Counted from the first letter of the stretch, positions 4,698-30,213 are shown. The stretch: DNA of 64,000 bases from an uncultured Bacilli bacterium (GCA_934090735.1 CAKOJR010000005.1:4524-68523), one strand, 5' to 3'. Notes: generated by a model from the letters alone, not told the origin. Numbers and translations are program-made.

Positions 4698-4792
4698 TTT
4701 CTTCACATTCTCCTTAGCTCCATAATACCACAAACATTGATAAATGTGCACTTTTTTGCTATAATCTTCATTGACAAAAAGAGGTAATTCAA

Positions 4793-11249: not shown

Positions 11250-12188
11250 TTAACTCGGTACTATCAATCTTTGCCCAATACTCAAAACATTAGATTTTAA
11301 ACCATTTAAACTCTTAATCTCATCAACCGTACTATTAAACATTCTAGCTATACTCCAAAGAGAGTCTCCACTCTTTACTACATACACATTAGTTTCCTCA
11401 TTCTTCTTATTACTATAAGGTGGTATCTTTAAAGTCATGCCGATACTTAAATTATTAGAACTAAGATTATTCAAAGACTTAATCTCATCCACACTAACAT
11501 TAAACTTTCTTGCAATAGCCCATAGCGTGTCTCCAGCACTGACCACATAATCATTAGAAGGACCTTTTCCAACAATAAGTCTCTGTCCAACACTAAGAAC
11601 ATTACTACTCAAATTATTTAACGCCTTTAATTCATTAACAGATAAATTATATTTCCTAGCAATACTCCATAAAGTATCACCACTCTTTACAACATAATAA
11701 GTATCATTCCCATCATCGTCCGTGCTATCAGCACTGCTTATTAGTAAAGTATCACCCACATGTAATACATTACTACTTAGATTATTTAATGCTTTTAACT
11801 CATCAACGGTAAGACCATTTGCTCTCGCAATACTCCATAGTGAATCACCCTTTTTAACAACATAATAATTAGAACCGCTTACTGGAACATACTTATATCC
11901 TCCATACAAAGTAACTGCTCTTACCACAGCTTCAGCATATTTCTTATAATTACTCTTAAGCCTCTCAGCATCAGCTGCATTATCTAAAAACCCATACTCA
12001 ACTATCAATGTCTCATTATTAGGTGTATTACGAATTATATAATAATAGTCCTTAGAAGAATCACTAGGAAGCCTTCTCTGATAATACTTTCTAACTACCT
12101 GCCCACTCTTTTCAAGCTCATTTAAAATACTTGAAGCAAGCTTATCATTATTACGAAGAGCATATATTACTTCTGCACCCTCGCCACC
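11250..12188 (-). pseudogene. 3' part of a split N-acetylmuramoyl-L-alanine amidase gene (C-terminal half of Amidase_3 plus four LysM repeats)
   Basis: The frame of the 252-aa LysM ORF remains open upstream to about 12197. It encodes GGEGAEVIYALRNNDKLASSILNELEKSGQ...LIVEYGFLDNAADAE, followed by four repeats of the form YVVKxGDxLWSIAR...LSxG. Confidence 0.8.
12179..12188. repeat. island junction core (left junction on the plus strand)
   Basis: Plus strand CCTCGCCACC (minus strand GGTGGCGAGG). Matches 9 of 10 positions of the core at 30186..30195 and sits in the same codon phase of the amidase frame. Confidence 0.6.
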
Positions 12189-12199
12189 TCGGGAAAGAT

Positions 12200-12213
12200 T
12201 TTATGTGATTAGA
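12200..12213. repeat. 14-bp direct repeat TTTATGTGATTAGA (copy inside the island)
   Basis: Identical 14-mer at 30200..30213, which lies in the amidase coding sequence (SNHI codons). Confidence 0.7.
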
Positions 12214-12268
12214 CTATCATTTTTCCTTTATTTTACTGCGTTTCTATTTTTTCTAAAAATAGTATAGA

Positions 12269-12306
12269 GGATGGTAAGATTGTGTGATTACCAAATTTTA
12301 CCATCC
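12269..12306 (-). terminator. hairpin downstream of the recombinase gene
   Basis: GGATGGTAA ... TTACCATCC: a 9-bp stem with a 20-nt loop. T-rich sequence follows on the minus strand. Confidence 0.4.
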
Positions 12307-12318
12307 TATTTTTATTAT

Positions 12319-13944
12319 TTAATTTATTTCTTCATAATTAGTTTTTATATCATCTAGCACCTTAAATCTATATTGAATTTCTATATTTCTATCTTTATCA
12401 ATATAAATTTTTTTTACTAAAGTTTTTATGAGTTCTCTGTTAGGTTCATCTAAATTTAAAAGTGATTTTATTTGTTCTTCATATTTAGCTATTTCTTTTG
12501 TATCTTCTTTAATCTGATTTTCTTCATTATCTATTTCATAAATTCTATAATTTAAGGCTGATATTTGTTTTTCAGTTTGTGTAGAGATTCTTGTATAAGT
12601 ATCAACACTTATTATTCCATTAAATTTATCATCATATAAAGCATCAGATTTTCTTTTTAATTCATCAATCTCGCGTAATAACTGTTGCTTTTCTTTTTGT
12701 CTATCATTCTTTTCCTTTGTTCTATCTTGTAATACTTTTTCAGACAGCTCTTTAATATTTAAACTATCTAAATATTTTTGACAAGTAGTTTTAATAACAC
12801 TCATTATTTTTTCTTCCAACTTATCGTAAGGAAAAAAATGTGGATAACATAAATGTCTTCTTGGATCTCTTGCGTATTTATTACAATTAACACTCCAATA
12901 TTTTCCATCTTTATAGTTTTTATTTTTTCTATAAAGAACACTTAAGGAGTTGCCACATTCTTTGCATACAAGTAGATTTTCTAATAATCTTTTTTCTCTA
13001 TTGCAATGGGTTGTTCTTACTCTTGCAGGAGCATTTTGTATTGCTTCAAATACTATCTTGCTAACTAGAGGCTCATGTGTATCTTCAACTATTATCCAAA
13101 ACTCTTTTTCTAAAGCAACTTTCTTCTGAGATTTATAACTTAACTTAGTTTGAACATTTTGTACCATATCTCCTGTATACATTCTATTTTTCAATAATTT
13201 ATTTACTGAAGATATTGTCCATACATTCACTTTTCGTCTTGAAGATGATTTAGTATTTTTATACATACTAGGACTTAATATCTTATTATCATTTAGGTAT
13301 GATACAATATCACTTACTCCAATTCCAGAATGAGCCATTTTAAATATCTTTTTAACAACAGGAGCAACTTCGGGATCAGGTATTAAATGTCCTTTATCAA
13401 GTGGATCTCTCATATAACCATAGCATGGCTTACTACCTATAAATTTACCTTGTTCTTTTTTATTTTTTAGTATTGAACGAATCTTCTTAGAAGTATCTTT
13501 ACTAGTCATATCATTAAACAAAGCTTTAAATGGAGCAATATCATTATTAGCACTTTCTAAAAATGTATCAACTTGATCTAATATAGAAATATATCTAATT
13601 TTCTTTTGTGGAAAATATTGTTCTACATAATATCCACATTGTATATAATCTCTACCTAATCTTGATAAGTCTTTCGTGATTACACAATTGATTCGACCAC
13701 TTTCAATATCCTTTAATAATCTTTGAAAAGAAGGTCTATCAAAGTTAGTTCCTGTAAATCCGTCATCTACATACTCATCAACCAAAGTAAATCCACTCAT
13801 TTTTACATAATCCATCAATAAATTTCTTTGATTGATTATACTTTCACTCTCTGACTCATAAGTTTTATCTTCATCACTTTCTGATAATCTGATATATAAA
13901 CCTACTCTATAAAAACTTGGTGCTTGTATTATATTGTTATACAC
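12319..13944 (-). CDS. large serine recombinase (integrase)
   Basis: 541 aa. N-terminal resolvase catalytic domain (VGLYIRLSESDED..., IINQRNLL, DDGFTGTNFDRPSFQRLL, KDLSRLGRD). Recombinase domain, a Zn-ribbon (CKECGNSL...CNKY) and a C-terminal coiled coil. Confidence 0.9.
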   Translation of the reverse strand: MYNNIIQAPSFYRVGLYIRLSESDEDKTYESESESIINQRNLLMDYVKMSGFTLVDEYVDDGFTGTNFDRPSFQRLLKDIESGRINCVITKDLSRLGRDYIQCGYYVEQYFPQKKIRYISILDQVDTFLESANNDIAPFKALFNDMTSKDTSKKIRSILKNKKEQGKFIGSKPCYGYMRDPLDKGHLIPDPEVAPVVKKIFKMAHSGIGVSDIVSYLNDNKILSPSMYKNTKSSSRRKVNVWTISSVNKLLKNRMYTGDMVQNVQTKLSYKSQKKVALEKEFWIIVEDTHEPLVSKIVFEAIQNAPARVRTTHCNREKRLLENLLVCKECGNSLSVLYRKNKNYKDGKYWSVNCNKYARDPRRHLCYPHFFPYDKLEEKIMSVIKTTCQKYLDSLNIKELSEKVLQDRTKEKNDRQKEKQQLLREIDELKRKSDALYDDKFNGIISVDTYTRISTQTEKQISALNYRIYEIDNEENQIKEDTKEIAKYEEQIKSLLNLDEPNRELIKTLVKKIYIDKDRNIEIQYRFKVLDDIKTNYEEIN

Positions 13945-14220
13945 TTACTACTCCTTCCAACGTGTATAACTTCAATAAGCAATATCATTATATCACAAAC
14001 TTTTACTGCTTACTATTTTCTAACATCAATTTTAAGTACTCCTCTATTAAGTCAACCAAGTTTTTATCTTTATCGAAAGTTTCAGTTATATTCACTAATC
14101 TACACCTCTCCTTTCATTTTATGAAATAAGAACGACTATAAGACTTTATTATCAAAATTAGGGCATAAAAAAATTAGTTATATTTCAAACTAATCTAGTA
14201 ATAGAAACTATTATATTCCT

Positions 14221-14766
14221 TTAATCCATTTCGTTTCGCTTAACATTTTGGAGTTCTAATTTATAAAATTCTAATATTTTTAGATAATCTTTACGGAAAT
14301 AGTTTTCGCTTAACCATTTAACACCTTCTTTAGAAATTATTACTTTACCATCTTTTAAATACTTAAATGATTGATTATTTCTTTTTTCCATCCTATTAAC
14401 TGCAACGCCAATAGCATTTTTACTCTTATTAAAATAACTTTTTAAATCATATAATGATATATCTTTATATTCAAATTCATTATGAGGAAAATTCAGTTCG
14501 TCTTCTAATTTTAATATTTGTTTTCTAAAGAAATTTATTTCAGCATCCAAATAAAATAGATTGTTGTTGAAATAAACTTCTTCTATCCACTCTACAAATT
14601 CTAATTTTAGATATACTACTCTTTCACCATTTTGAGCAAAATGTTCATCAATCCATCTCTCATTAGGATGTCTTCTTTTTAATCTTTTCACTAATCTCTT
14701 ATACTGTTTTTCGCTAATTTTAAACTTCTGTAAAACACGCCACTTCTCCATTGACTTAAATTCCAT
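14221..14766 (-). CDS. hypothetical basic protein; candidate DNA-binding or recombination directionality factor
   Basis: 181 aa, K/R-rich (KRLVKRLKRRHP). AAAGGAGA RBS. Sits directly upstream of the recombinase gene in the same orientation. No domain recognised. Confidence 0.4.
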   Translation of the reverse strand: MEFKSMEKWRVLQKFKISEKQYKRLVKRLKRRHPNERWIDEHFAQNGERVVYLKLEFVEWIEEVYFNNNLFYLDAEINFFRKQILKLEDELNFPHNEFEYKDISLYDLKSYFNKSKNAIGVAVNRMEKRNNQSFKYLKDGKVIISKEGVKWLSENYFRKDYLKILEFYKLELQNVKRNEMD

Positions 14767-15084
14767 ATTTCTCCTTTCATTTCATACCAAATTTCAGATT
14801 ACCATTAAATCCTATTTTGAGGTTACATACCCGTGTAATACAATATATCAAGCATGGTGTATACACACCCATCTAGCTTGTTAGGGAATATCCCTAAAAC
14901 CCACTAATAGTCTCCGACAGTTTAGAAATTTTTTAATCAAATTTTCATTTAATATTTCAACTATTTCATAAAATTCATTATCAATTTTTAAAAATATAAC
15001 TCACCCTCTTTCTTTGATGAAAATAAAAATGGACATGAAAAAAGAGAGATAAAAAATCCCTCAATTAGTCCTTCTTTATAACTA

Positions 15085-15125
15085 TCCTATATTACCATAA
15101 TACCACAAAATAATAGGAATTGCAA
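15085..15125 (-). promoter_or_regulatory. sigma-A-like promoter unit A with flanking inverted repeat TCCTAT-N22-ATAGGA
   Basis: Minus strand TTGCAA-17 nt-TATTAT (15125..15097). The inverted repeat arms at 15085..15090 and 15113..15118 bracket the -10 element. Confidence 0.4.
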
Positions 15126-15230
15126 TGGCACGATTTTCGTCAAATGCTTCACTATCCGTTATAAAATAAGGGTTTGTAAAAGAAAAAATAATTTGCAAAA
15201 ATACAAATTATTTCTATCATCTTACAACTT

Positions 15231-15271
15231 TCCTATATTATCATTTTAGCACAAAATCATAGGACAGTCAA
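15231..15271 (-). promoter_or_regulatory. sigma-A-like promoter unit B, paralogous to unit A
   Basis: Minus strand TTGACT-17 nt-TAAAAT (15271..15243). The same TCCTAT-N22-ATAGGA geometry occurs at 15231..15236 and 15259..15264. Roughly 70 percent identical to unit A over about 50 nt (aligned by eye). Confidence 0.4.
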
Positions 15272-15329
15272 CGGACATGATGCAATATTAACCTTCTTTT
15301 CCTGAAATTCTATTGAATTTATATATTAT

Positions 15330-18300
15330 TTAATGCACTCTAAATTCATCAATTAATACACCTGCAATTTCATTATCATGAGCTATCAATATACATAAAA
15401 TATCTTCATAAGACTTAATTAATTCTTCATCTAATTTTATTTTATCGCTATATTTTGTAAATGATTTAATAATTATCATATTAATAATAATATCTACATC
15501 ACCTTTTAATTCTTTTTCTAGAATATTATAGTTACTATTGTTGTAAGATAAGATTTCTTTTACACTAATTAAAATTTCAGGTAGTAATTCATCAACATTC
15601 AGTAAATATAAAGATTTAATAGCATCTCTTATATAATAAATTCCGTACTTTGAAAACTGCCTGTTTAAAAACATTTTATCTTCATAGCTATAACTTGTTT
15701 TTATCTCCGAAGGATTCCACTTACAATCTCTTGATGCATTAAAGAAAAGACATTTATATAATTGCTTTTTTACTTTTTCATTTTTAATATTAACAATTCT
15801 TTTTTCAACTTCTGATATCTTCTTTTTACAGATATTTCTCCTAGAAGCATTATTATAAGAATCATAAAATTCAGCAATAAAACCACCCATAATTTTCTGA
15901 TAAAATTCTATTGCTTCCTCTTGAAATATTTCAAAATTAATATCTTTAAACAAAAAATCAATCACATTTTCATTATATTCTAATGTGTAAATTAATTCTT
16001 TTTGTATAAAAGAAACTAATTCAAATTCACTATATGTATCAATGATTTCATAATATAGCCTATCTTCTTTACAAGAGTCATATATATTTATCATGCATTT
16101 CAACAATTCTTTTAGAATTTTTTCAAAAGATTTGTTACTTAAAGTCATTCCACAATTAACAATTTTAAATAGTAATTGTATATCATAATCATCAATATTG
16201 AACTGATCTAAATTTAATTTTTTTTCATCAAACAAATAATCTTGTATAACTTGTTCTTTTAAGCTTTCATACTTTTTTTCGCTATTTTCTTCAAGTTGAT
16301 AGTCCACACCAGAAAGCCTTGGCACAAAATTAGGCTTAAATACAAATCCAGACTCTTTAACGTACGTAGCATTATATTTTTGATGATTCATTTCGTCTTC
16401 TGAAAGTTTGATGATAGTATTAAATATAATTCTAGATAAGTTAGAATTACCTAACAGATACTGAGATATTTTTAATTGTATTTGTTTAATAATACCATCA
16501 TGTGTATCATTTATAATGCATTTCAAAATTATTTTTTTAATTTTATTTTTTATTTCATCACTTGTATCTTCATATAATTGATCTAATAAAATATTAATTA
16601 ATTGTGGTTCAAAAATAAAAACTTCGTTTTCAAATATTTTTTCCAGTCCAGTAATCCAGAAATCACAAAAATTATTTCTTTCTAATGTAGATAATTTTTC
16701 TTCTTTTAGGGCTATGGAGATAAAACATATTAAGATGGATTCATATCCACTAGTTCTATCACTATTGCTATTTATAATACCATTTAATTCTTCAATACAA
16801 TTTAGGAGCTTATCTCTATAGTTTTTTCCTCTTTGTCTATCTCTAATATAATTATCAATTTTATTTTCTAATTCAACATAAATTTCATTTTGTTTTTCAT
16901 GTGAATCTGTCACTTTTTTTGCTTCACCAGTAATTTTAGTTTCAATCATTGACGTATTTTTATCAACTTCAGTTATTACGGCATTTCGCATATCCATTTT
17001 TTGTATTTGAAGATAATTAGTTGCATTATCCTCAGTATTAGTAATAATAGTATATAAATAATCCAAAATTTTAAAAACCCGTTTTTGAAAATCAACACCA
17101 AAACTAATTTGCAAACTTATAGCATAATTTTCAATATGGATTGCACATTTTTTATCTAATTGATATCTATATTTTATTTCTGGCAATCCAATTTTTAATA
17201 ATAATTGTTTTTCTAGCATTTGTAATTGAGGATTATTTAAATATAAGGAATATCTATGAGTATCCCAATTTATAATATCAATACTCGTAACTAAATCTAA
17301 GGCATATCCAGGAAACTCATTTTGAAAATGTAGTCCTATATTCTCTATTACTGTCAATAAAATTACATTATTTGACTTTGAATAAATTTTATTTTTAATA
17401 TTTAATAGTATCTTTTCAACATTTTCTTTATCAGATAAATTTTGCTGAATAAAATTAATTATGGAATCTTTAATATAAAATACAATATCACTTAATAAAT
17501 CAGGAACATATCCGTCCCTTGTACCAGCCAGCCACATATTATTATTTCCATAATATTGCTTAATTTCATTTGTATCAACAAATTTTATTTTTACTTTAAG
17601 AACATTGTCGGGTGAGTTTTCTGCATAAGCGTCAACAGAATTATTTATAAAATCAATTGCCCAATCTAATCCAATATAAAAGTTTACTCTAAAAAGATTC
17701 CACAACAAAACATTTTTATTTGGTGTTTGAAATGAATACTTATAATCTTCACATAATCCATAATCATTCTCGACATTACTATGATAATAAAATTCATTAT
17801 TTGAGTTTTTTTTAATCCACAGAGTATTAGCAATGAAACACATTTCATGTGGCAATTCTTTAACAAGATTATAGTGTGCATTTTCTGAAATCCATTGTAA
17901 TATTTCTTCCGACATTCTCTGATTTTTTTTACTTTTGCTGTTATAACTCTCTAATAATTTAGTGAAAAAATTCTTTAACCATTCAGAACAAGTTTCTGAA
18001 AGTTTGAAAAGTACAACAAGATATTTATCAATATATTCAATGACATTGAACCGCTCTTTATCGACTTTTTGGAAAACTTCATCAACAAAAAATTCTAAGA
18101 TTGAACAAACAAGTATATCAATTTCTTTTAACCTGTTATTGTTTTGATTTGTATAGTCTAAACAAAGTTTTGCAACTTTAGACTCATTAATAGTATTTTT
18201 TAAATATAACTTTTCTTGAGCAATTATTTTTATTATATTTTTACGACTTCCACCAGTTGGAATCAATATAACTTTTGGAAATTCATTATTAAAATCAACT

Positions 18301-20081
18301 AATTTCAAATCGAAGCAATAAATATTGCAAATATCTATAAATTCATCTAATAAATTATTATCTAAAATATTAAATATATTTTTTTCAAAGAAATTGTCAT
18401 TATAATTTGATTTTAATATTCCAATTTCAGTTTGCTTTTTCCACTCATTAGATACGCAATTAGAAAATACCAAATTATTTATAAATTTATCCTGATTTTC
18501 TTTAGTAAATAATTTATTAGAAATCCATATTTGATATCTTCTATAGACACATCTACCCATTTTTTCTATTTTTTTATAAAAATTATCATATTTTCCCTTA
18601 CAAGAGATAAACTGTTCATCAAAAAATTGTTCAAAACATATGTCTTCAAATATATCATATTTTAAACGAATACCCTCTTTATTGCGTATAACTATTTCTT
18701 CTGAAATTAAAGCAGAAATAATATTAGAATCAATATCTTTCTCACTGACTCCTAAAACAAATTTTTTTGCTCTGTCAAAAACTATTTTTTCTATTGCCTT
18801 TCTAACATTAGATACTTTAATATTATATTTTTTAGTTTTAGACTTCAAACAAATTATATTTTCCCAAATATAATATCGGAGTTTATTAATATCATCTATA
18901 CAATCTGGATTAATATTATATGACATAATGATATTTATATAAAAAGGTATTTTAAGCAAATCGTTATAGCTATTATTTTGTGCTAACTTGTTTATAATTG
19001 GGTATTTTTCTTTAATTAGATTTAACTCTTTTGATGAAATTTCGTCTATCTCATACAATTTAATCATATAGTTAGATTCAAGTTTTATAAATGCATTATT
19101 ATCATTTGATCTACATGAAGTTATTATATATGCATTCTCATATTTTGATACTATGGAATATAATGATTCTAATAATTCTAGTTTAGTTTTTGACGCATCA
19201 GCAATAAATTCTAAAGCATCTATAAAGAATACAATTCTTTTACCATTTAGAAAATCTAACATAGTTTTAATATCAAAATCCCAAATACTATTTAGATGAG
19301 TTTCTTCAACAAATCTTTCAGCACGTGCAAATAAGACCAATTTCTCATCATCAAGGTATTTTTTGCATAAAACTGACTTCCCGCTACCAGCCATTCCTTG
19401 AATGGATATAAATTTATTATTATCATCTTTTATTCTTTTCAAAAAATCTGATCTATCAATTTCATATTCGCCATTTATTTTTACATCTATATTTTTTATA
19501 CCAACATTTTTACTAATATCTAAGGCTTCACTAAATTTTAGTGATATTTCGTTGTAATTTTCAAATTCTTGTTTAAGTAATATAAAGATATCTTCTTGAA
19601 ATTTTATATCATTTTTTGATCGTGTTACAATGTCTAGAGTAGTTATTAAATTCTTGCTTTTATCAAAGGGAATATTACCAATTTGCTTTTTCCCAGTATA
19701 ATTTTTAATTTTTGTAATTTTATCATTATGTAAAACAAAAAAATAGACTTCTGTAATTTCAGAATATTTATTATCCTTGTTATCTCTGACATTTTCTAAA
19801 GTACTTTTAATCTTATTTTCCACATCAAGAGTTGTACTTACTTGAATATATATTTTTTTATCTTCTGATATCAAATCAAAATAAGGAAAATTACATCTCT
19901 CATCATTTAAATTATAAAATTTTTGATTAAAGTATAGTCCACAAATATTCTGCGCAAATAATTCAAACATTTTTGCATTATCAAATAAGCCATTTTTATT
20001 AGCTAATTTTATCTTTTGTTCATATGCAGACATATAATCTATAATAAAATCCATTCTCTCTTTTGAATACATCATAATCAC
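15330..20081 (-). CDS. giant NLR/STAND-like P-loop NTPase with N-terminal effector-like domain and long helical C-terminal region
   Basis: 1583 aa. Walker A IQGMAGSGKSVL (aa 229-236, nt 19374..19397), Walker B IVFFIDALE (aa 283-291), and a NACHT-like YIITSCRS motif. The N-terminal ~180 aa contain FPYFDLISEDKKIYIQVSTT. The rest is helical. The track start at 20081 is GTG; the ATGs at 20075 and 20072 are more likely. Confidence 0.75.
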   Translation of the reverse strand: MIMMYSKERMDFIIDYMSAYEQKIKLANKNGLFDNAKMFELFAQNICGLYFNQKFYNLNDERCNFPYFDLISEDKKIYIQVSTTLDVENKIKSTLENVRDNKDNKYSEITEVYFFVLHNDKITKIKNYTGKKQIGNIPFDKSKNLITTLDIVTRSKNDIKFQEDIFILLKQEFENYNEISLKFSEALDISKNVGIKNIDVKINGEYEIDRSDFLKRIKDDNNKFISIQGMAGSGKSVLCKKYLDDEKLVLFARAERFVEETHLNSIWDFDIKTMLDFLNGKRIVFFIDALEFIADASKTKLELLESLYSIVSKYENAYIITSCRSNDNNAFIKLESNYMIKLYEIDEISSKELNLIKEKYPIINKLAQNNSYNDLLKIPFYINIIMSYNINPDCIDDINKLRYYIWENIICLKSKTKKYNIKVSNVRKAIEKIVFDRAKKFVLGVSEKDIDSNIISALISEEIVIRNKEGIRLKYDIFEDICFEQFFDEQFISCKGKYDNFYKKIEKMGRCVYRRYQIWISNKLFTKENQDKFINNLVFSNCVSNEWKKQTEIGILKSNYNDNFFEKNIFNILDNNLLDEFIDICNIYCFDLKLVDFNNEFPKVILIPTGGSRKNIIKIIAQEKLYLKNTINESKVAKLCLDYTNQNNNRLKEIDILVCSILEFFVDEVFQKVDKERFNVIEYIDKYLVVLFKLSETCSEWLKNFFTKLLESYNSKSKKNQRMSEEILQWISENAHYNLVKELPHEMCFIANTLWIKKNSNNEFYYHSNVENDYGLCEDYKYSFQTPNKNVLLWNLFRVNFYIGLDWAIDFINNSVDAYAENSPDNVLKVKIKFVDTNEIKQYYGNNNMWLAGTRDGYVPDLLSDIVFYIKDSIINFIQQNLSDKENVEKILLNIKNKIYSKSNNVILLTVIENIGLHFQNEFPGYALDLVTSIDIINWDTHRYSLYLNNPQLQMLEKQLLLKIGLPEIKYRYQLDKKCAIHIENYAISLQISFGVDFQKRVFKILDYLYTIITNTEDNATNYLQIQKMDMRNAVITEVDKNTSMIETKITGEAKKVTDSHEKQNEIYVELENKIDNYIRDRQRGKNYRDKLLNCIEELNGIINSNSDRTSGYESILICFISIALKEEKLSTLERNNFCDFWITGLEKIFENEVFIFEPQLINILLDQLYEDTSDEIKNKIKKIILKCIINDTHDGIIKQIQLKISQYLLGNSNLSRIIFNTIIKLSEDEMNHQKYNATYVKESGFVFKPNFVPRLSGVDYQLEENSEKKYESLKEQVIQDYLFDEKKLNLDQFNIDDYDIQLLFKIVNCGMTLSNKSFEKILKELLKCMINIYDSCKEDRLYYEIIDTYSEFELVSFIQKELIYTLEYNENVIDFLFKDINFEIFQEEAIEFYQKIMGGFIAEFYDSYNNASRRNICKKKISEVEKRIVNIKNEKVKKQLYKCLFFNASRDCKWNPSEIKTSYSYEDKMFLNRQFSKYGIYYIRDAIKSLYLLNVDELLPEILISVKEILSYNNSNYNILEKELKGDVDIIINMIIIKSFTKYSDKIKLDEELIKSYEDILCILIAHDNEIAGVLIDEFRVH

Positions 20082-20216
20082 CCTAACAACTTATTTAATA
20101 ATATAGAAAAAATTTTTTAATTTTGATTTATCACTAAAGATTTAGTATTTACTTTTTCTAGCCTTTTTTACAAAGGATATCTCGAATATAAAATCTATAC
20201 CATTTTTTATAAAAAT

Positions 20217-22871
20217 CTAATCAACTTTGTATTGTTCAGTTAAATATTTAAAAGTTGAATTAGTTTGTATCTTACTTGAAGGTATCAAAACATATTCCCA
20301 ATGTTTATTACCTGTTGAATCTGCCCATTTTGATACTAATTGACAATATGAAAGTGCTCTTTCCTGTTTTGCTAAAACATCAACATCATCTAATTTATTA
20401 TCAGCTTTTACTTCAACTAAATATACAATAGATTCTGTTTCCACTACAAAGTCAGGTTCATAACGCTTTCCACCATTATATGTAATATTAAACTCATTTG
20501 GACTAGGTCTTAACCATGTACGCACAAAATTATCTTCTCTTTCAAGCTGTCTGGCAAGTATAAGTTCTGGTTCACTATCAAATTTTGCTGAACTAAATAC
20601 ACCTCTCTTTATTCCATCAAATAATATTGAAGTTATTTTTCCATCATTTTTAGAATCATATGAATCAAAAATATTCTTTACTTTACTATAACTGTAATTT
20701 GATTGAAAATTTATATTACTATTACTAAAAACTTCTTCCTTTATCAATCCTTCATTTCTAATAAAATGTCTTAACATTTGAGAATAAATTTCTGATGTTA
20801 TTTCATTTTTATACATCATAACTATGTTTTTTGTTCCGTCTACACCATATTGTTGTTCATAATAATCTGTCAACTGACTTATTAATTTAAATAATAGCTC
20901 TGAACTTTTTTCATAATCAACTTCTGCTTTTTTTCGTAACTCATCGACAATCGACTTTTTAGGATTCAATATATCAAAAGTAATATAACCTTTTTCTATT
21001 TTTTCTTCATCTGAGGAATCTAATAAATTTCTTAAAATTAATTCATTTTCTATAGGTTGCTGATTAAATTTAGTTAAATCCAAATCAAAATCATCAAAGT
21101 AGTATTCACCTTCTTCTCTTTCTACCTTAATCTTTGGTATTAAAATAAATTTATTAAGAATTTGATCGTGTGTCTTAATAATATTTTCTTTTATCCAATT
21201 TTCAATTGGATTTTTATTTTCATCATAAATTTTACCATAATCCTTATCTTTTTTTATTTCATATTCTATAGCATCTTTTATTTTAATTTTTCCTTCATCC
21301 GTAAAATTATTATTAGAACTTAAAGTGTAATTTTCAACATTCTTTACTAATAAATCATTTATTCTATTTGCAAAACCATATTTTTCGCTTTCCTCACATA
21401 CAACAAGTTTATCACACAATTCATCATCTGAGGGGTATTCCAGAGGTAAGCGCGTAAAAATTATTTTTTCCTTTTCTAGTTCTTCAGCTTTTATAATATT
21501 ACCTTTGTTAAAAATTGAATTACCTTTTTGGGCTTCTTCTATAATTTCCTTAAATTTATCATGTGCTGTAAGCATAACAGAGTCAATATCCTTATCACCA
21601 GTTCTTTCACCATAAGGTAATCGTAGTCCTCTTCCTACCATTTGTTCCCTTAATATTTTTGAACTTGCTGTCCTTAAAGGCACAATTGTATAAAGATTAT
21701 TTACATCCCATCCTTCTTTTAACATATTAACATGAATTACTATTTCAATTGGATTATCAACTTTTTCAACATCCAAAAGCAGCTTTGTATTAACTTCAGT
21801 TTCAATGCCTGACATTTTTGAATTTATTGTTATTGTTTTAAATTTATAATGTCCATTCTGAAAGTCATCAGATTTTATATACTTTTCTATTTTTGAAGCA
21901 TGTTCAGTGTCTTTACATACAACTAACATAAATGGTTTTATTAAATCCTTTTTCATACTTCTAGAATAATAAAATAATTTTTCCTTAATGCGTTTATGAC
22001 ATAAAATTCCATCATTTAACATCAATTTATCTATCTCATCATCACCAAAATTATAAAAATTAATATCCGTTCTAGTAACTGCAAAAGGAACTCTTGTATA
22101 TCCGTCTTTTATTGCTTCAGATAATGGATATTCGTACACAACATTTTTAAATGGAATTTGCTTACCTTTTACATTTACTAAAGGTGTGGCAGTCAATTCT
22201 AAGCCTAAAATTGGTTTCAGATTGTTTATAGTTTCCATTCCTCTATCTGCTCTATAATGATGTGATTCATCCATAATAATGACTAAATCTTTCATTTCTG
22301 CTAACTCATCATAAAAAGACATTCCTCTTACTTCACTGAAAGCTTTCATTTTTGTATTTTCTTTATCAAATTTACTTATATTATAAACATAAATTGTTAC
22401 TTCAGAATCAAATAAATTTATCATTCTATTAAAATCATCATCAGCGACTACTCTTGGAGGATTATTAAAACATCCAATTCCTTTAAACACATATTTAGAA
22501 TTATCTGGATTTCCTAGGTCTCTTTTTAATTTTTCATATATAGTTGTAGATGGAGCAATTACTAAAAAATTTTTAATATTATAGTTTGTATAAAGATATG
22601 TTATGAATGCTCCCATAAGTCTAGTTTTACCAACACCTGTTGCTAATGCAAATGTTAATGAAGTAAATGCTCTTTCAAATTCAGTAAATATTGGATATTT
22701 TGAATTAATTACCTTTAAATTATTAATATTATCTTGGTTATATTCATTCATTAAATTCGTACTTTTTAATATATCATCCAATATTTGCAATGACTTTTCT
22801 TGCGGGTTTCTTAACGACATTATACCAGATATATAATCAATAGAATACTTCATACTATTTACATCATTCAT
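20217..22871 (-). CDS. res: type III restriction-modification system, restriction (Res) subunit
   Basis: SF2 helicase motifs ATGVGKT and IIMDESHH. C-terminal PD-(D/E)xK-like motif YEPDFVVE...VYLVEVKAD. The preferred start at 22871 (GGAGG 9 nt upstream) overlaps the mod stop. Confidence 0.9.
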   Translation of the reverse strand: MNDVNSMKYSIDYISGIMSLRNPQEKSLQILDDILKSTNLMNEYNQDNINNLKVINSKYPIFTEFERAFTSLTFALATGVGKTRLMGAFITYLYTNYNIKNFLVIAPSTTIYEKLKRDLGNPDNSKYVFKGIGCFNNPPRVVADDDFNRMINLFDSEVTIYVYNISKFDKENTKMKAFSEVRGMSFYDELAEMKDLVIIMDESHHYRADRGMETINNLKPILGLELTATPLVNVKGKQIPFKNVVYEYPLSEAIKDGYTRVPFAVTRTDINFYNFGDDEIDKLMLNDGILCHKRIKEKLFYYSRSMKKDLIKPFMLVVCKDTEHASKIEKYIKSDDFQNGHYKFKTITINSKMSGIETEVNTKLLLDVEKVDNPIEIVIHVNMLKEGWDVNNLYTIVPLRTASSKILREQMVGRGLRLPYGERTGDKDIDSVMLTAHDKFKEIIEEAQKGNSIFNKGNIIKAEELEKEKIIFTRLPLEYPSDDELCDKLVVCEESEKYGFANRINDLLVKNVENYTLSSNNNFTDEGKIKIKDAIEYEIKKDKDYGKIYDENKNPIENWIKENIIKTHDQILNKFILIPKIKVEREEGEYYFDDFDLDLTKFNQQPIENELILRNLLDSSDEEKIEKGYITFDILNPKKSIVDELRKKAEVDYEKSSELLFKLISQLTDYYEQQYGVDGTKNIVMMYKNEITSEIYSQMLRHFIRNEGLIKEEVFSNSNINFQSNYSYSKVKNIFDSYDSKNDGKITSILFDGIKRGVFSSAKFDSEPELILARQLEREDNFVRTWLRPSPNEFNITYNGGKRYEPDFVVETESIVYLVEVKADNKLDDVDVLAKQERALSYCQLVSKWADSTGNKHWEYVLIPSSKIQTNSTFKYLTEQYKVD

Positions 22872-24612
22872 AAAATTCATCCTCCATATCATTGGAAATA
22901 TCATTTACAACATTTAGATTATAATTATTTACATTAAAAACACATTTATTTAATAACATCTCTGGTATTTTTTTTATCATTATATTTTTGTACTTATTTA
23001 ACAGTTCTTCATCATAAGCAGTACACGCAATAACAAGATACTCTTCAGGAAGCATAGAACCCTTTATTTTTTCTAGTGTCATTGAATTTAAAAATTGAGT
23101 TGTTACATATAAATAACTATTTTCATTTCCTATTGATTGTTTCCAAAAAATCTCTTTATCAGGATTGTATTCAAAACCTTCATGGAGTGCAACTGATCTT
23201 GCTAGCATTTCTGGATTGTAGTTTTTATTAATAACCATTTCCCCAAAAGAATCTTCATTTATTAAAGTTGGTGCAAGTTCATAAAAATTGTAACCTCCTC
23301 CACCATTCCAATTAACAATCGAGGTAATTCCACCATTATCTTTTCCATCAATGATTAAATTTAATCTTTTTATACAATGCGTATATACATGTTCACCCAT
23401 CTCAATTCCTATCCAATTTCTATTCATTTTATGGGCAACCGCTGCTGTAGTACCACTACCTAAAAATGAGTCTAAAACATAATCTCCTTCATTTGTACTC
23501 ATTTCTATTATCCTGTTTAACAATAATTCTGGTTTTTTACCATTAGGAAATTCTACTTGACCTTCTTTTGTTAAATTATTAAGATTTATTCCATCCCATA
23601 AAGTTCCTTGTAAGTCTTTCTTTAACCATTTTCCATCTTTATATTCCGTTACATCTTTTAGCCAAGTAAGTAATCTAAATTTATCGCCTTTATAGAATTG
23701 CTCATATTCATTTCCTTTGTTTTTACCAGTCTTAGGAATATATTTGATGCTAATTACATCTGAATGTTTAATGCCTTCTAATCTTTCCATTACTCTTGGT
23801 CTAATTGAAGATTGTGGCATTGCAGTTGTATGAATTCGATCCATATACTTATAATATACTTCATTTTCTGAAATATTTTCTTGCTTTGCAATTTGAGATA
23901 TTGACATAAATTTTGCATTTGGACGATTATATATTTTAATTTCATTTCCATCGCCATCTACTGTTGATGCTAGATATTCAGGGTCTCCTTTTTCATATAA
24001 TACCGACGTATATTTCCAGCTAATACCTTCATCTTTATATTTTTTTACCAATTCACATATTTCTGTATACGCATATGCATTTTGTAGCCATTTAAAATTA
24101 TCATATTTTTTAGTATATGTAAGGATAAATTCAATATTCTTTTTTAATCTTTTATCTTCTCCTCCACCACTTGCACCTGCAATATTCTTCATTTTAACTG
24201 TTATAGTATTCAAATAATTATTTCTACCAAAAATTTCATCACATAATACTTTCAAATATGCATATTCATTATCATCAATTTGAATAAATATTATACCATC
24301 CTCTCTCAATAATCTCTGCAAAATAACTAAACGTTCCTTCATTAGGTTTAGCCAAATACTATGTTCTAGATTATCATTATAATGTTCAAATGCACTTCCA
24401 GTATTATATGGAGGATCTATATAAATACATTTTATCCTTTCTGAATAATTCTTTTCTAATGCTTTCAACGCTAAAAGATTGTCCCCATGAATGAGAATAT
24501 TTCGAGAATTTTTATCACCATAACTTCTTTCATCATCCTTAATCAATATTCTAGGTTCTACCTTTTCTTCATTGTTTTTTCCTATCCATGTTAATTCTAA
24601 TTTACCTTTCAT
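22864..24612 (-). CDS. mod: type III restriction-modification system, DNA methyltransferase (Mod) subunit
   Basis: Beta-class motif order: IYIDPPYNTG (motif IV) near the N-terminus and VLDSFLGSGTTAAVA (motif I) near the C-terminus. Overlaps the res start. The start is either the ATG at 24612 or the GTG at 24624. Confidence 0.9.
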   Translation of the reverse strand: MKGKLELTWIGKNNEEKVEPRILIKDDERSYGDKNSRNILIHGDNLLALKALEKNYSERIKCIYIDPPYNTGSAFEHYNDNLEHSIWLNLMKERLVILQRLLREDGIIFIQIDDNEYAYLKVLCDEIFGRNNYLNTITVKMKNIAGASGGGEDKRLKKNIEFILTYTKKYDNFKWLQNAYAYTEICELVKKYKDEGISWKYTSVLYEKGDPEYLASTVDGDGNEIKIYNRPNAKFMSISQIAKQENISENEVYYKYMDRIHTTAMPQSSIRPRVMERLEGIKHSDVISIKYIPKTGKNKGNEYEQFYKGDKFRLLTWLKDVTEYKDGKWLKKDLQGTLWDGINLNNLTKEGQVEFPNGKKPELLLNRIIEMSTNEGDYVLDSFLGSGTTAAVAHKMNRNWIGIEMGEHVYTHCIKRLNLIIDGKDNGGITSIVNWNGGGGYNFYELAPTLINEDSFGEMVINKNYNPEMLARSVALHEGFEYNPDKEIFWKQSIGNENSYLYVTTQFLNSMTLEKIKGSMLPEEYLVIACTAYDEELLNKYKNIMIKKIPEMLLNKCVFNVNNYNLNVVNDISNDMEDEFYE

Positions 24613-24753
24613 AATATACACCACACTTATAATTTCTCTTCTAATCTTAAATACTTATTTTTATCTAATTAAAAATTTTTTAAATTACAATTTTTTGGAT
24701 AATTGCTAATATTAATTATACTATAAAAACTGGCAAAAATCGACTTTTTATGA

Positions 24754-25779
24754 TTAATTAGTATCAATTATTGTTTTTCTTAATTCTTCTTCTAAAGAAT
24801 GCGATAATTGTATTAAATATTGTTCATTAAAATCAATATCAGTTCGATTTGACATCTTTTTTTCAATAAGATCAAATATTTCATTTCTATCTTTTTGAAT
24901 AGCAATTCTATCAAAAATTAATCCAGCCCATGAATTATCAAAATAATGGCAGCCCATAAATATTAATTTTAAATTTTTATCATTTGTTGCAAAGAAAACT
25001 TCTTTATCTGAAAAATGGTATTGAAAATTATTGATTGATGACAAATAAGAGATATCCCAAGCCTGATTTTTACATCCTCTAATAATTTTTTCAAAATCTT
25101 TACTTTTAATATTTTTTGGTGCCTTAATAGTCGAATAGTTAGTGAATAATAAAATTGCATAGGTAATATCATACATAGATAATTTTAAATTATCATAATA
25201 CCAATCAAGATACTTTAAAATTTTGTTTTTTGTAGATAATTTAGTTAAAAAAACCTCTGCAATTTTTAAAACCGAACAATAACTAAGTAAATATGTAATA
25301 CTTTTATTTTTATAATTTGCATGGCGGTGAAATTTTACTGATATATCAAATTTTTGTAATTTATAGTTCCCATTTTTTAAATGATTTAAAAAAACTAAAC
25401 TTGGAATTTCAGATAGATAAGTCAACAACTCATTTAATTGCCTAATGACTTCTGAATTTTCTGTTAAATCTCCATATTCATTCATTGCCAATCCAATATT
25501 ATATTGTAATCCATTACAATTACAAAACATCAAAAATGATAGTAGCATTATCATATTATCTTCTTCTTTTAATTCACCATTTTTAAGATAATCAAACAAC
25601 ATTGAAGTTATATTTCTATCTAGTACAATAATTTTGTCTTTCTTATTCATCAAATATTCTTTGTAATGAGTAAATTTTCCTTCCATAGCATAATAAGGAT
25701 GAAAAATAATTTGAAAAGAATTAACTAAATCAAATATATCATTTAAATCATTATCCTCTAAAATAATCAAATCGTTCAT
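24754..25779 (-). CDS. hypothetical protein (possible PIN-like nuclease; weak inference)
   Basis: 341 aa from the ATG at 25779 (GAGGTGA RBS). Acidic motifs IIVLDRNI, AWDISYL and FFATNDKNL loosely resemble PIN-domain signatures. No confident domain. Confidence 0.45.
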   Translation of the reverse strand: MNDLIILEDNDLNDIFDLVNSFQIIFHPYYAMEGKFTHYKEYLMNKKDKIIVLDRNITSMLFDYLKNGELKEEDNMIMLLSFLMFCNCNGLQYNIGLAMNEYGDLTENSEVIRQLNELLTYLSEIPSLVFLNHLKNGNYKLQKFDISVKFHRHANYKNKSITYLLSYCSVLKIAEVFLTKLSTKNKILKYLDWYYDNLKLSMYDITYAILLFTNYSTIKAPKNIKSKDFEKIIRGCKNQAWDISYLSSINNFQYHFSDKEVFFATNDKNLKLIFMGCHYFDNSWAGLIFDRIAIQKDRNEIFDLIEKKMSNRTDIDFNEQYLIQLSHSLEEELRKTIIDTN

Positions 25780-25960
25780 ACAAATCACCTCAAAACATTA
25801 GCATAGCTATTCTTATAATAATTAAACAGTTAATTATATTATACCATGTCTATATGGTTTTATCGTCTTTATCTATTTGTTTTAATAATTGATTTTAAAT
25901 AATTTATTATGAATTAAAAACCGTATTCGGAAATCCACATACCCGTAATGGTGCACTGGA

Positions 25961-26257
25961 TTAATTTTCATATGGTTTTTCATAAATTATATATTCATAA
26001 TCAAATCTGCCATTTTCATCTCTAGTTTCAATAACTTTTAAATATTTATTAACTTTTAATTCATTTAATATTTTTCTAATAGTATCTCTACTTTCAACAC
26101 AAATACTTGATAATCCTAATATAGAATAGTCCCAATTATCTGGTAATGATAACATTAAAGATAATAAACCCTTTGCCTTTAAACTTAATCTTCTATCCTT
26201 CAAATGATAATTTCCCATAACTATATATCCTTCTTCTCTATTTGATTTTATTTTCAT
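25961..26257 (-). CDS. small winged-helix DNA-binding protein of the type common on Firmicutes mobile elements
   Basis: 98 aa. The pattern LSLKAKGLLSLMLSLPDNWDYSILGLSSI...RDTIRKILNELKVNKYL...GRFDYEYIIYEKP matches the widespread HTH family found on plasmids and phages. Confidence 0.55.
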   Translation of the reverse strand: MKIKSNREEGYIVMGNYHLKDRRLSLKAKGLLSLMLSLPDNWDYSILGLSSICVESRDTIRKILNELKVNKYLKVIETRDENGRFDYEYIIYEKPYEN

Positions 26258-26284
26258 ATTCTCATATCCTTTCTTTTCTCAAAA

Positions 26285-26310
26285 TAAAAAAGCCTATATA
26301 AATAGACTTT
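26285..26310 (-). terminator. rho-independent terminator after the rnlB-like gene
   Basis: Minus strand AAGTCTAT-ttata-ATAGGCTT (one mismatch) followed by TTTTTT. Confidence 0.5.
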
Positions 26311-26335
26311 ACGCTCAACAAACAATTTCATAAAT

Positions 26336-26689
26336 CTAATTGTTTAATACATAATTTATTGTTGATTTTGTTAATGTACCATTATTTAATATATCAACAT
26401 GTTCTTTTAAATATTGTTTAACAGTTTTTTTACTTGATTCTGATACATCATTTGGATTTATGATTATACTATTATAGCTTCCTTCTTCAAAGTTTAATAA
26501 TACATACCTATTAAATGAATATCCATTTCGCAAAAACAAATCTACAATAACAGAGAATTTATTTCCTTGAGTTTTTGAAAGTTCATTGTATATATCTTCA
26601 GTAAAAAAATATAAGTCATCAATATTGTTCAAAAAAATATAATTTTTATTTATATCCTCTTCAAAATTAAAAATTTCATAATCGTTCAT
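26336..26689 (-). CDS. rnlB: RnlB-like antitoxin
   Basis: 117 aa (E. coli RnlB is 123 aa), immediately downstream of the RnlA-like gene with an AAGGAGA RBS. VIVDLFLRNGYSFNRYVLLNFEEG parallels RnlB ILFDLLCANGPEWNRFVTLEMKYG. Confidence 0.6.
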   Translation of the reverse strand: MNDYEIFNFEEDINKNYIFLNNIDDLYFFTEDIYNELSKTQGNKFSVIVDLFLRNGYSFNRYVLLNFEEGSYNSIIINPNDVSESSKKTVKQYLKEHVDILNNGTLTKSTINYVLNN

Positions 26690-26701
26690 AAATATTCTCC
26701 T

Positions 26702-27748
26702 TTATTTATAAAAAACATTATAAGATTTTTCAATATTTTCAATAATTTCATCAACTATTTCTTTTGCTTCTTGCCAATTTTCAATTATTCTTGTTTGTGA
26801 TGGTTCAATTGTTGCATGCAAGAACACATTTCTCTTATTTGAATATATTTTATTTAATTTTATTAAATATTCTTTTTCATCATTACTTATTAATTTATCA
26901 TTTTCAATTTTACTTGAATTTCCTCTATCTTTATAAAACATTGAAAATTTATTTTTTTTATCAATCTTATATGAATACTTATTCACTAATACTTTTGTTA
27001 AGTAACCTTCTAATGTTTTAAATGCACCTGTAACACAACAAGTATAATCCTCACTTTCTTTTATTGTTTTAAGTGATGTGATTGATCCTGAAAGAGATTT
27101 TATCAATGCTTCATCTAAAAAAGTATATGAATTTGATAAATTTGCTTTAATTGTTTCTCTTATATCAGCTGTTGAAATTTTTGTTGTTGTAAACATGTTG
27201 TTTATTTCTATAATACTATCAAGAGATACAGAAGATAATTGAGATAATAAGGTCATTATTATACCAAAAGTTTTAAAAGGTCTACCTTGAATCATAACTT
27301 TATTAGTTTGAGGGTAAAATGTTATATCAATATGATCTTTATTATACCCAATAAAACGAATTCTATTATTACTATAATATTTAATTTGAATTTCAGAAGA
27401 AAACTCATCTTCAACACATTTAATAAGTTCTTCAATTGTTTCTTTATTACATGAAAACACTGTTTGTTTGGGTTGAGCACTATCAATAGGATAACCTAAT
27501 TCAGCTAAATATTTTATCAATTTATTAGATTCTTCAGCATTTTTTCCAATAGGCATCATTTTTACAGACATCTTTTTAACCTTAACATAGAATTTAACTT
27601 TACATTGTTTTCCTGATATAAAAAAGTTGCATGTATATTCTTCTTTACCTTGAACTTTAATATAATTACTAAATACAAAATCAATATTTTTTTTAGAATA
27701 ATCTTTGATATAAGTTTCTATATCATCTGGATTTATATATACTTCCAT
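26702..27748 (-). CDS. rnlA: RnlA-family HEPN endoribonuclease toxin
   Basis: 348 aa (E. coli RnlA is 357 aa). QTNKVMIQGRPFKTF parallels RnlA TTGKLQIQGRPLSCY. AFKTLEGYLTKVL parallels ELRTIEGVLKSKM. A C-terminal HEPN Rx4H motif is present (KRNVFLH versus ERHSLFH). Confidence 0.8.
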   Translation of the reverse strand: MEVYINPDDIETYIKDYSKKNIDFVFSNYIKVQGKEEYTCNFFISGKQCKVKFYVKVKKMSVKMMPIGKNAEESNKLIKYLAELGYPIDSAQPKQTVFSCNKETIEELIKCVEDEFSSEIQIKYYSNNRIRFIGYNKDHIDITFYPQTNKVMIQGRPFKTFGIIMTLLSQLSSVSLDSIIEINNMFTTTKISTADIRETIKANLSNSYTFLDEALIKSLSGSITSLKTIKESEDYTCCVTGAFKTLEGYLTKVLVNKYSYKIDKKNKFSMFYKDRGNSSKIENDKLISNDEKEYLIKLNKIYSNKRNVFLHATIEPSQTRIIENWQEAKEIVDEIIENIEKSYNVFYK

Positions 27749-27750
27749 TA

Positions 27751-29064
27751 CTACTTCACTCCTTCAACACAAATTGCTTCTGTTTTTTCATTATCATTTA
27801 TTATTACTTTATATTTGACTCTTTTACCCTTTTGTAATAATTGTTTATTGCCAATAACACTACGCATATTAAAATATATATTATCTTCATTATTATCTTG
27901 CTTTATAAATCCCGAATGCCCATTTTTCAATATATTATCTATTTTACCAAATAAATATTCATTATCATTTTGTTCAATATATTCTCTTGCTATAGATTTT
28001 AATTGATACATATTTGGTTTTTTGGTAACATCTAAATCATATTCAGATATATAATATTGTAATTCCTCTGATAAATTCCAACCCATTAAATTTCTAAAGT
28101 AAGCACATGCATGATAATATTTTATAGCATTATCATTTTTACCCTGCGATTCCCAACATAATCCCAAGTTATATAATAAAGTTACTTTTGTTTCATCAAT
28201 TAATTCATTATAAATAGCTTTGCAATTATACAGTAAACTCTCTTTAAACTTCCCAAAACTATAGCAAATATTTGCAAGTTTATGCCATAAAAACCAGTAA
28301 TTTTCTTTTTCAGCAAATGTTTTATAATTTTGAAAATCAATTTCTCTATTACTAGAAATCATACATTTTGAATATAATATTCTACCTGTAATCCAAATTT
28401 TATTCTTATAATGAAACTTTTTAATTATTTTTAATGCTTCTTCACCAATTAAAATACATTTTTCATATTGTCCTATTTTTTCATATGACTTAACCATGTT
28501 TTGATAATAAAATTCCTTGGATGATGCTTGTTCAAATTCGCCTTCTCCTATTTTTGTTGTAAAACATTCTTCAGATAATATTGTTGGATTAAGTTTCTCT
28601 AACCATTGGACTATTTTTTCTTGATTACTTCTGGATGTTCGTGAAGATAGCTTATTATTATATACTTTTACAACTTTTTTGATAGTTAAAACATATGGTG
28701 TAAGAATTTCATTAGTTGCTTCTCTTTGCACAGAGTGATTAATTATTATTTCTGCCATTTTTATAAACTCTTCAAAGTTAGATTCCTCAGTATCTATATA
28801 ATTTTTAATATAAACATCATATACACACCAACATAAAACTGATATTACATAATTACTTTTTCTTATATATGAATCTTTTGGTATTTTAGAAAACTCATTT
28901 AAAAAAATATCTGATTTATTACATTTACGTAATGAATTACCATACTCTGCAAAAAGGTTATGATCATCCTTATTCGACGAATTCCATAATTTATCATATA
29001 TCAATAATGCTTTTTCAAAGTCTTTATTATTATAAAATTCTTTTGCTTGATTCCTTTCATTCAT
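27751..29064 (-). CDS. TPR-like repeat protein with C-terminal cold-shock (CSD/OB) domain
   Basis: 437 aa. The body is TPR-like and helical. The last ~65 aa, GKIDNILKNGHSGFIKQDNNEDNIYFNMRSV...KGKRVKYKVI...AICVE, parallel CspA-type [31 protein letters not shown]...EGQKVEFEI. The stop lies 2 nt before the rnlA-like ATG, and the GAAGGAG RBS for that gene sits in its own last codons. Confidence 0.65.
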   Translation of the reverse strand: MNERNQAKEFYNNKDFEKALLIYDKLWNSSNKDDHNLFAEYGNSLRKCNKSDIFLNEFSKIPKDSYIRKSNYVISVLCWCVYDVYIKNYIDTEESNFEEFIKMAEIIINHSVQREATNEILTPYVLTIKKVVKVYNNKLSSRTSRSNQEKIVQWLEKLNPTILSEECFTTKIGEGEFEQASSKEFYYQNMVKSYEKIGQYEKCILIGEEALKIIKKFHYKNKIWITGRILYSKCMISSNREIDFQNYKTFAEKENYWFLWHKLANICYSFGKFKESLLYNCKAIYNELIDETKVTLLYNLGLCWESQGKNDNAIKYYHACAYFRNLMGWNLSEELQYYISEYDLDVTKKPNMYQLKSIAREYIEQNDNEYLFGKIDNILKNGHSGFIKQDNNEDNIYFNMRSVIGNKQLLQKGKRVKYKVIINDNEKTEAICVEGVK

Positions 29065-29156
29065 AATATCAGTCCCTCACACAAATTAATATAATTATAA
29101 CATATATATTGCAAATTTTATTTTTTTTGCAAAAAATACATATTAAAATTTTAATT

Positions 29157-30068: not shown

Positions 30069-30185
30069 TTTTTCACCTCTCATCTTTAAAGTATTTTGAT
30101 ATATCTATTATACCATTATATCCAGTAAAATAAGAAGCTTATTAAAGTTATACACTATGCCTATAATTAACCACATATTACGCGT

Positions 30186-30195
30186 CCTCGCCTCC
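30186..30195. repeat. island junction core (right junction on the plus strand)
   Basis: Plus strand CCTCGCCTCC (minus strand GGAGGCGAGG). Partner of the core at 12179..12188. Confidence 0.6.
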
Positions 30196-30199
30196 TGCA

Positions 30200-30213
30200 T
30201 TTATGTGATTAGA
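30200..30213. repeat. 14-bp direct repeat TTTATGTGATTAGA (copy in the amidase coding sequence)
   Basis: Identical to 12200..12213. Confidence 0.7.

Follow-up and report, generated by a model that had tools for sequence, protein, structure and literature searches.

An intact giant gene with three modules

The window analysed here is a stretch of 64,000 nucleotides from an uncultured Bacilli bacterium of the human gut (GCA_934090735.1, CAKOJR010000005.1:4524-68523). On its minus strand, at 15330..20075 with the stop codon at 15330-15332, lies an Avs4-like gene whose product, 1,581 amino acids (aa) long, has a SMEK domain at its N-terminus, a STAND NTPase in the middle and a long sensor at its C-terminus. 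It is very probably an antiviral STAND protein of the Avs4 lineage that carries SMEK as its effector.

The open reading frame (ORF) runs without interruption over 15330..20081, which makes 1583 codons counted from a GTG at 20081. The true start is likely the ATG at 20075, two codons after the GTG and giving the 1,581 residues: a Shine-Dalgarno sequence, AGGGTGA, precedes it at the right distance (approximately 20079-20085), and the close homologues begin with MMYS or MYS. Residues are numbered here from this ATG; in an earlier description of the locus, made from the DNA alone and called below the sequence-only reading, the numbers are larger by two. The upstream intergenic region, 141 nucleotides (nt) at 20076..20216 on the same strand, separates the start codon from the stop of a type III restriction gene, res, and holds the Shine-Dalgarno sequence. 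It has a single weak promoter-like site (20213-20185); since the promoter scan of this AT-rich DNA returned 60 sites against 57.8 expected by chance, it is uninformative, and a promoter is not established.

Counted as representatives of 90%-identity clusters with E ≤ 1e-5 among the candidates scored, the homologues number 1,232, and the best 120 of them are all full-length (1,570-1,591 aa). They come mostly from Firmicutes, with Clostridia and gut Bacilli/Tenericutes-like lineages, and occasionally from other phyla. Orthologues in three other gut-derived genomes, Acholeplasma sp. CAG:878 and two metagenome-assembled genomes labelled "uncultured Bacilli" (loci L003, L004 and L005), are 97-99% identical and all intact; the ratio of nonsynonymous to synonymous substitution rates (dN/dS) between the window gene and these three is 0.18-0.20. 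With so many homologues and three intact orthologues at such ratios, the ORF is not a product of chance: the gene is whole, and purifying selection acts on it. A disruption of the ORF, which the sequence-only reading had considered, is found in none of the four genomes.

The NTPase occupies residues ~206-485 (18621..19460, minus strand, as for all features of the gene) and is made of nucleotide-binding, helical and winged-helix parts. The three motifs picked out by the sequence-only reading are all present as described: Walker A, GMAGSGKS (aa 227-234, 19374-19397); Walker B, IVFFIDALE (aa 281-289, 19209-19235); and sensor-1, IITSCRS (aa 317-323, 19107-19127). A "PFYIN" motif lies at 18930-18956, and the winged-helix domain contains "KYDIFEDICFE" (18630-18671). 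To describe the family we used 31 diverse representatives, obtained in a sensor-only search of 1.84 billion cluster representatives and gathered in profile A3. Residues G227, G230, G232, K233, D286, E289, C321, R322, D474, E477 and D478 are invariant in all 31; with Walker A, Walker B and the sensor-1 arginine thus preserved, the proposal of a STAND/NLR-like NTPase holds. Pfam recognises the P-loop/STAND region weakly, over aa 207-330 (NPHP3_N, NB-ARC, nSTAND_NTPase5), and profile searches assign the protein to no housekeeping family.

The remaining ~1,100 residues, aa 486-1581 (15333..18620), form the sensor, an Avs4-type helical solenoid. Its AlphaFold2 (AF2) model, beginning at residue 481, is mainly helical with a few β-hairpins, and of moderate confidence (mean predicted local distance difference test score, pLDDT, 75.9), the low-confidence stretches being model aa 276-303 and 464-569. 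The sequence-only reading had anticipated a helical sensor; the helices are there, the length is not, for it had counted more than 1200 residues and the NTPase runs to about aa 485. It had also found nothing in this region that it could name. Foldseek and the AF2 model supply the name: the sensor matches chain B of the E. coli Avs4 (EcAvs4) structure, 8dgf_B, with E 8.4e-20 and a template-modelling score (TM score) of 0.57 normalised to the query (TMq), over 1,191 columns, at a root-mean-square deviation (rmsd) of ~10.6 Å. The runner-up reaches E 6.5e-6 and TM 0.17, and all the others are generic α-solenoids with TM ≤0.2.

Relationship to Avs4 and the candidate trigger

In PADLOC, Avs4 is the sole match at E ≤ 1: with E 1e-32, it pairs aa 97-1569 with model positions 82-1560 of 1,570. 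NCBIfam likewise returns only two families, SMEK_N and Avs4 (NF041815), the latter with E 3e-48 over aa 93-1547. Compared with PDB 8dgf_A, the chain of EcAvs4, profile A3 gives E 8e-56 and a collinear alignment from aa 168 to 1195; compared by hhalign with a gene on an E. coli plasmid that carries the annotation "AVAST type 4 anti-phage nuclease Avs4", it gives a probability of 99.9% and E 4e-33 over 1,007 columns. That plasmid avs4 is even within reach of a plain tblastn search with the window protein (E 1e-9). In the family profile, the NTPase motifs align with GEGGVGKT, VIVVDSAE, TTRN, NPFYLS and THDIYEEW of EcAvs4, and Foldseek places 8DGF at the top for the AF2 model of the N-terminal half (E 6e-13), followed by Avs3 (E 3e-7).

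Family models, profiles, hhalign and Foldseek agree, so that NTPase and sensor are homologous to Avs4 throughout, at low identity. Profile alignment and predicted structure make the sensor a homologue of the one with which EcAvs4 binds the portal. Of the two architectures suggested by the sequence-only reading, Avs and bNACHT, the first is retained, specifically as Avs4, which PADLOC, NCBIfam and, for both halves, 8DGF indicate. The second is not: other than Avs4 there is no PADLOC match at E ≤ 1, hence none to the bNACHT models, and no Pfam NACHT match at the same threshold; weak NACHT matches occur in 4 of the 31 relatives.

EcAvs4 (PDB 8DGF, bound to the PhiV-1 portal; NF041815; PADLOC PDLC02169) is also the closest counterpart in overall build. 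It is 1,587 aa long against 1,581, and its effector and NTPase meet, as here, near aa 170. Both are single-gene systems in which a STAND NTPase stands between an effector at the N-terminus and a long helical sensor; NTPase, winged helix and sensor are collinearly homologous, and the motifs GxxGxGK[ST], hhhhDxxE, (T/C)R, PFY and (H/Y)DI(Y/F)E are common to the two. They differ in host range, which is Proteobacteria for EcAvs4 and Firmicutes and gut Bacilli for the window family. SeAvs3 (PDB 8DGC), which senses terminase and carries a Cap4 nuclease, follows the same tripartite STAND logic, but its match is much weaker than that of Avs4, its sensor is absent from the top matches and its effector is another one. 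Avs11, a portal-sensing STAND protein, would have the presumed trigger in common with the window protein; it is reported to lack sequence or structural similarity to Avs4 (PMC13581612), which the window protein clearly resembles.

Several observations weigh against so direct a link. NF041815 is matched with 163.8 bits, far below its equivalog cutoff of 1,500, and by only 13 of the 31 family members, the best of which (E 1e-69) is still far from that cutoff. Searches of the PDB with the single sequence and with a narrow profile (A1, members at least 47% identical) returned only the SMEK/Mrr domain of a Kordia protein and missed 8DGF. The protein is no more than 16-21% identical to EcAvs4, and the last ~390 residues of the sensor lie outside the range reported to align with the EcAvs4 sequence. 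With this identity and this score, neither orthology nor the identity of the trigger is established.

The low identity, the loose superposition of the sensors and the unaligned C-terminal ~390 residues would equally suit an alternative in which architecture and abortive logic are the same and the diverged Firmicutes sensor responds to some phage protein that is not the portal, or to several. There are precedents on the side of the triggers: Avs sensors can shift or broaden their targets (PMC11564622), recognition of several proteins has been reported for KpAvs2, and unrelated families can converge on the portal, as Avs11 does (PMC13581612). We nevertheless consider a shifted trigger distinctly unlikely. 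The entire sensor is collinear with that of EcAvs4, by far its best structural match, and Avs1-4 are reported to recognise conserved folds of phage proteins, not their sequences (PMC13581612).

The window gene is thus a divergent member of a known immune family, a largely expected finding given that the PADLOC Avs4 model already detects it; it leaves current concepts unchanged and will not surprise specialists. Its relatives are named merely "SMEK domain-containing protein" because they score so far below the NF041815 equivalog cutoff. More than 1,200 proteins with no other annotation are now linked to the Avs4 pattern-recognition receptors, which gives a testable function to genes of hard-to-culture human-gut bacteria and is useful for the annotation of gut Firmicutes.

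The putative SMEK effector and its exchange

Residues 1-170 (19566..20075) constitute the SMEK domain, predicted to be a PD-(D/E)xK/Mrr-like nuclease effector. Pfam PF21941 (SMEK) matches aa 11-152 over model positions 2-138 of 140, with E 1.1e-27 and 97.1 bits against a gathering score of 27, and SMEK_N of NCBIfam matches with E 3e-14. The sequence-only reading had ventured a SMEK-type or restriction-endonuclease-like N-terminus with low confidence, and was correct. In the AF2 model of aa 1-485, residues 4-114 follow the order α-α-β-β-β-α-β, with pLDDT of ~70-89; as predicted, this order fits a PD-(D/E)xK core.

The sole solved structure with sequence similarity to this module is PDB 26bh, the "Mrr domain" of the Mrr-APAZ prokaryotic Argonaute (pAgo) of Kordia jejudonensis, found with E 7e-5 from the single sequence and E 8e-12 from the family profile. 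The match covers the whole domain, aa 3-171 against 6-170. We compared 26 SMEK-bearing relatives, 24-50% identical to the window protein: E38, N57, D67, Q78, V79, K88 and T92 are invariant in all of them, and position 80, S80 in the window protein, is always S or T. The residues of interest are encoded at 19962-19964 (E38), 19875-19877 (D67), 19836-19844 (Q78-V79-S80) and 19812-19814 (K88). By alignment, the Kordia domain carries the matching E, D, Q-x-T and K.

The two proteins thus have in common the domain family, with its conserved E, D, Q-x-(S/T) and K positions, and the fusion of an N-terminal effector to the sensing module of an immune system. They differ in what that module is. In Kordia, SMEK is fused to APAZ and controlled by the guide-directed nucleic-acid recognition of a short Argonaute; in the window protein, it is fused to a STAND NTPase predicted to sense proteins. 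Among the effectors of short pAgo systems, SMEK is counted as a nuclease, and DNA cleavage has been reported for the SMEK-APAZ/pAgo complex (PMC10810196). That one module serves both short Argonaute/APAZ and STAND NTPases, sensing chassis that are not related to each other, is a further case of effector shuffling in prokaryotic immunity. In the literature that we searched, no paper links SMEK with STAND or Avs proteins, although an earlier description is possible.

Another view of SMEK in this protein is that it is not a DNase: it would act on RNA or be a DNA-binding or adaptor domain, with killing or signalling achieved by another route. The Q-x-S/T motif speaks for this view and counts also against the nuclease assignment that we prefer. 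Mrr-type nucleases have (D/E/Q)-x-K at the place of Q-x-S/T, and this exchange holds in 26 of the 26 members; the window protein has no Mrr_cat Pfam match at E ≤ 1; and the SMEK profile has no significant relation to the N-terminal nuclease of EcAvs4 (hhalign probability 0.6%, E 0.1). With S or T at position 80 in place of the classical lysine, catalysis must rely on another lysine, possibly K88; that K88, on the following helix, stands in for the missing one is a guess from the alignment. On the other side, E38, D67, Q78 and K88 are all invariant, the predicted α-β-β-β-α-β core fits PD-(D/E)xK, and the Kordia domain, part of a complex reported to be a nuclease (PMC10810196), has the same Q-x-T/S with a downstream K. 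We hold a SMEK domain that is no DNase to be very unlikely.

EcAvs4 itself bears a different effector. Residues 1-170 are left unaligned in the comparisons with EcAvs4 by profile against 8dgf_A, by hhalign and by BLASTP. The N-terminal domain of E. coli-type Avs4 has no Pfam match; its alignment (A6) displays E...E...Q-x-K, against E..D..QxS/T and K for SMEK, and the weak local hhalign alignment of the two pairs E with E, D with E and Q with Q. We considered the EcAvs4 nuclease as a remote relative of SMEK and rejected it on the hhalign probability: as the profiles show no significant relation, we regard SMEK as an effector family of its own, mounted on a chassis of the Avs4 type. A conserved NTPase and sensor combined with changing N-terminal effectors is described as typical of Avs proteins (PMC11897194), so that the absence of an EcAvs4-type nuclease does not by itself exclude membership in Avs4.

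The heads are swapped within the window family as well. SMEK is matched by Pfam in 25 of the 31 diverse relatives and not in 6, and by alignment 5 of them are without it. These five (P0121, P0125, P0127, P0139 and P0144) have an N-terminus of ~150 aa that opens with a hydrophobic helix (MDLxxxxGLxSSxxxIEE), and many genomic loci match the query only from aa ~180 on, for example L027, L029-L033, L035, L036 and L050. Pfam finds nothing in the N-terminus of P0121, the only such representative scanned. The swapped N-terminus may act on membranes or be a new effector of another kind.

A homologue of the same kind, 39% identical and with a non-SMEK N-terminus, is encoded at 405-5075 of MT835780.1 (L083), deposited as "UNVERIFIED: Bacteriophage sp." from human faeces; its N-terminus, too, is without a Pfam match. 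The rest of this 20-kb contig contains an integrase, repressors, an invertase and a helicase, and no recognisable structural genes, and for the latter reason we do not count it as carriage by a phage. It may be an integrative element instead.

Taken together, the best overall explanation, which we hold with good though not full confidence, is an antiviral Avs receptor made of a single protein, which belongs to the Avs4 lineage and kills by means of a SMEK-type nuclease. By analogy with EcAvs4, the specific pairing of a portal trigger with a DNase output is somewhat better than an even call. Avs1-4 directly bind the folds of the large terminase or the portal (PMC13581612), and Avs4 in particular is activated by the portal and forms tetramers that activate its N-terminal nucleases (PMC11897194).

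Onto the observed architecture, homology, conservation, selection and context, a course of events can be projected by homology with EcAvs4 and SeAvs3. In the uninfected cell the protein would be a latent monomer. Upon infection, its C-terminal solenoid would bind a conserved structural protein of the phage, most probably a portal protomer, and the nucleotide-bound NTPase modules would then oligomerise, into a tetramer in EcAvs4. The SMEK domains, brought together at the N-terminal end, would be switched on to cleave DNA non-specifically, and the infected cell would die or arrest before the release of phage progeny, that is, by abortive infection.

It is unlikely, if still worth keeping in mind, that the SMEK-bearing Firmicutes clade forms an Avs family of its own, set off by other or several phage triggers and by a lysine-less SMEK whose substrate or chemistry is unlike the degradation of double-stranded DNA by EcAvs4.

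Homologue neighbourhoods and the defence island

The sequence-only reading described a stand-alone giant ORF, a single-gene defence candidate, between a recombination module and a type III restriction-modification (R-M) system; the neighbouring genes agree, and the gene lies in a defence island with no recurrent partner. The island, delimited by Pfam, PADLOC, synteny and repeats, measures ~18 kb (12170..30213). At its left end is a large serine recombinase (12319-13944), followed by a 181-aa ORF on the minus strand (14221-14766) with no significant Pfam or PADLOC match and a non-significant BglII-like one (E 0.07). Beyond the Avs4-like gene come type III Res (20217-22904) and Mod (22864-24624), then three ORFs without assigned function (24754-26689), among them a minus-strand ORF of 344 aa (24754-25788) that has no significant Pfam or PADLOC match. 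An RnlA-like toxin (26702-27748; Pfam RnlA-toxin_DBD, E 2e-12), a protein with TPR and a cold-shock domain (27751-29064; PADLOC "TPR" model PDLC01170, E 2e-35) and a metallophosphoesterase (29157-30083) complete it.

The region 12144-30069 is syntenic with Acholeplasma sp. CAG:878, at 97%. The block 26308-29157, which encodes the RnlA-like toxin and the TPR/cold-shock-domain protein, is a variable cassette within the island: L004 and L005, whose islands are syntenic in other respects, lack it or have other DNA in its place.

The island splits a gene for an N-acetylmuramoyl-L-alanine amidase with LysM repeats, whose parts lie on the minus strand at 11250-12213 and 30178-30453 of the window. The N-terminal amidase part is a 91-aa ORF ending at 30178, with "...ISNHINAGGEDA" before its stop; the frame resumes at ~12188 ("GGEGAEVIYALRNNDK...", read as "GGEGAEVIYAL...") and runs into four LysM repeats. 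A 14-bp direct repeat, TTTATGTGATTAGA, is found at both junctions (12200-12213 and 30200-30213), with imperfect similarity in the flanks. The amidase is split likewise in L003, L004 and L005. The island resembles the skin-type elements, recombinase-borne and interrupting a gene. We rejected a prophage context: the genes beyond ~30 kb are housekeeping ones (AbgT, FtsH, TilS, GltX, HtpG), so the island is not a prophage. Against plasmids, a megablast search with the Avs4-like gene gave no match.

Elsewhere, too, the homologues adjoin integrases, R-M genes and other defence genes, in line with the context expected by the sequence-only reading. The L001 homologue has a type I R-M system and a PIN protein as neighbours; that of L002 closely follows smpB and is accompanied by a remnant of ArdA. 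A survey of 29 diverse loci covered 113 nearest neighbours, and among the commonest families AAA_21 proteins and tyrosine integrases (Phage_integrase) occur 7 times each, PARIS AriA and mad3 5 times each and AbiLi 4 times. None of the 113 is a recurrent partner gene; this, together with the variable neighbours, fits a self-contained defence gene travelling in variable islands. The 344-aa ORF of the window was considered as a conserved partner and rejected, as BLASTP detects no similarity to the 343-aa gene directly preceding the L001 homologue. The enrichment in defence genes is qualitative, the survey of neighbours having no background control, and to that extent the immune reading is weakened.

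In principle, the protein could be a STAND with no part in immunity, for example a signal-transducing regulator, or serve the maintenance of the island or addiction to it. Many STAND NTPases are regulators, and the gene is carried on a recombinase-borne island. But the protein has no DNA-binding output domain, its sole family-level matches are Avs4 and SMEK, and its homologues are found in many unrelated contexts without the recombinase. A non-immune role is hardly to be credited.

In several loci, ORFs of 1,600-1,980 aa directly adjoin the Avs4-like gene (L041:4946-9763, L016:17068-22101 and L078:1729-7659); a second STAND, or additional giant proteins with a part in defence, may be encoded there.

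The window as a whole has a G+C content of ~28% and a marked strand skew. On the plus strand, the G+C skew is strongly negative across 1-64000, with a cumulative value of -10.4 over 64 kb, and from 11 kb onward nearly all genes are on the minus strand. A lone tRNA-Glu(CTC) is found at 47547-47622. Skew and gene strand would suit a single replichore in a gut genome of Bacilli/Acholeplasma-like type and low GC (28%).

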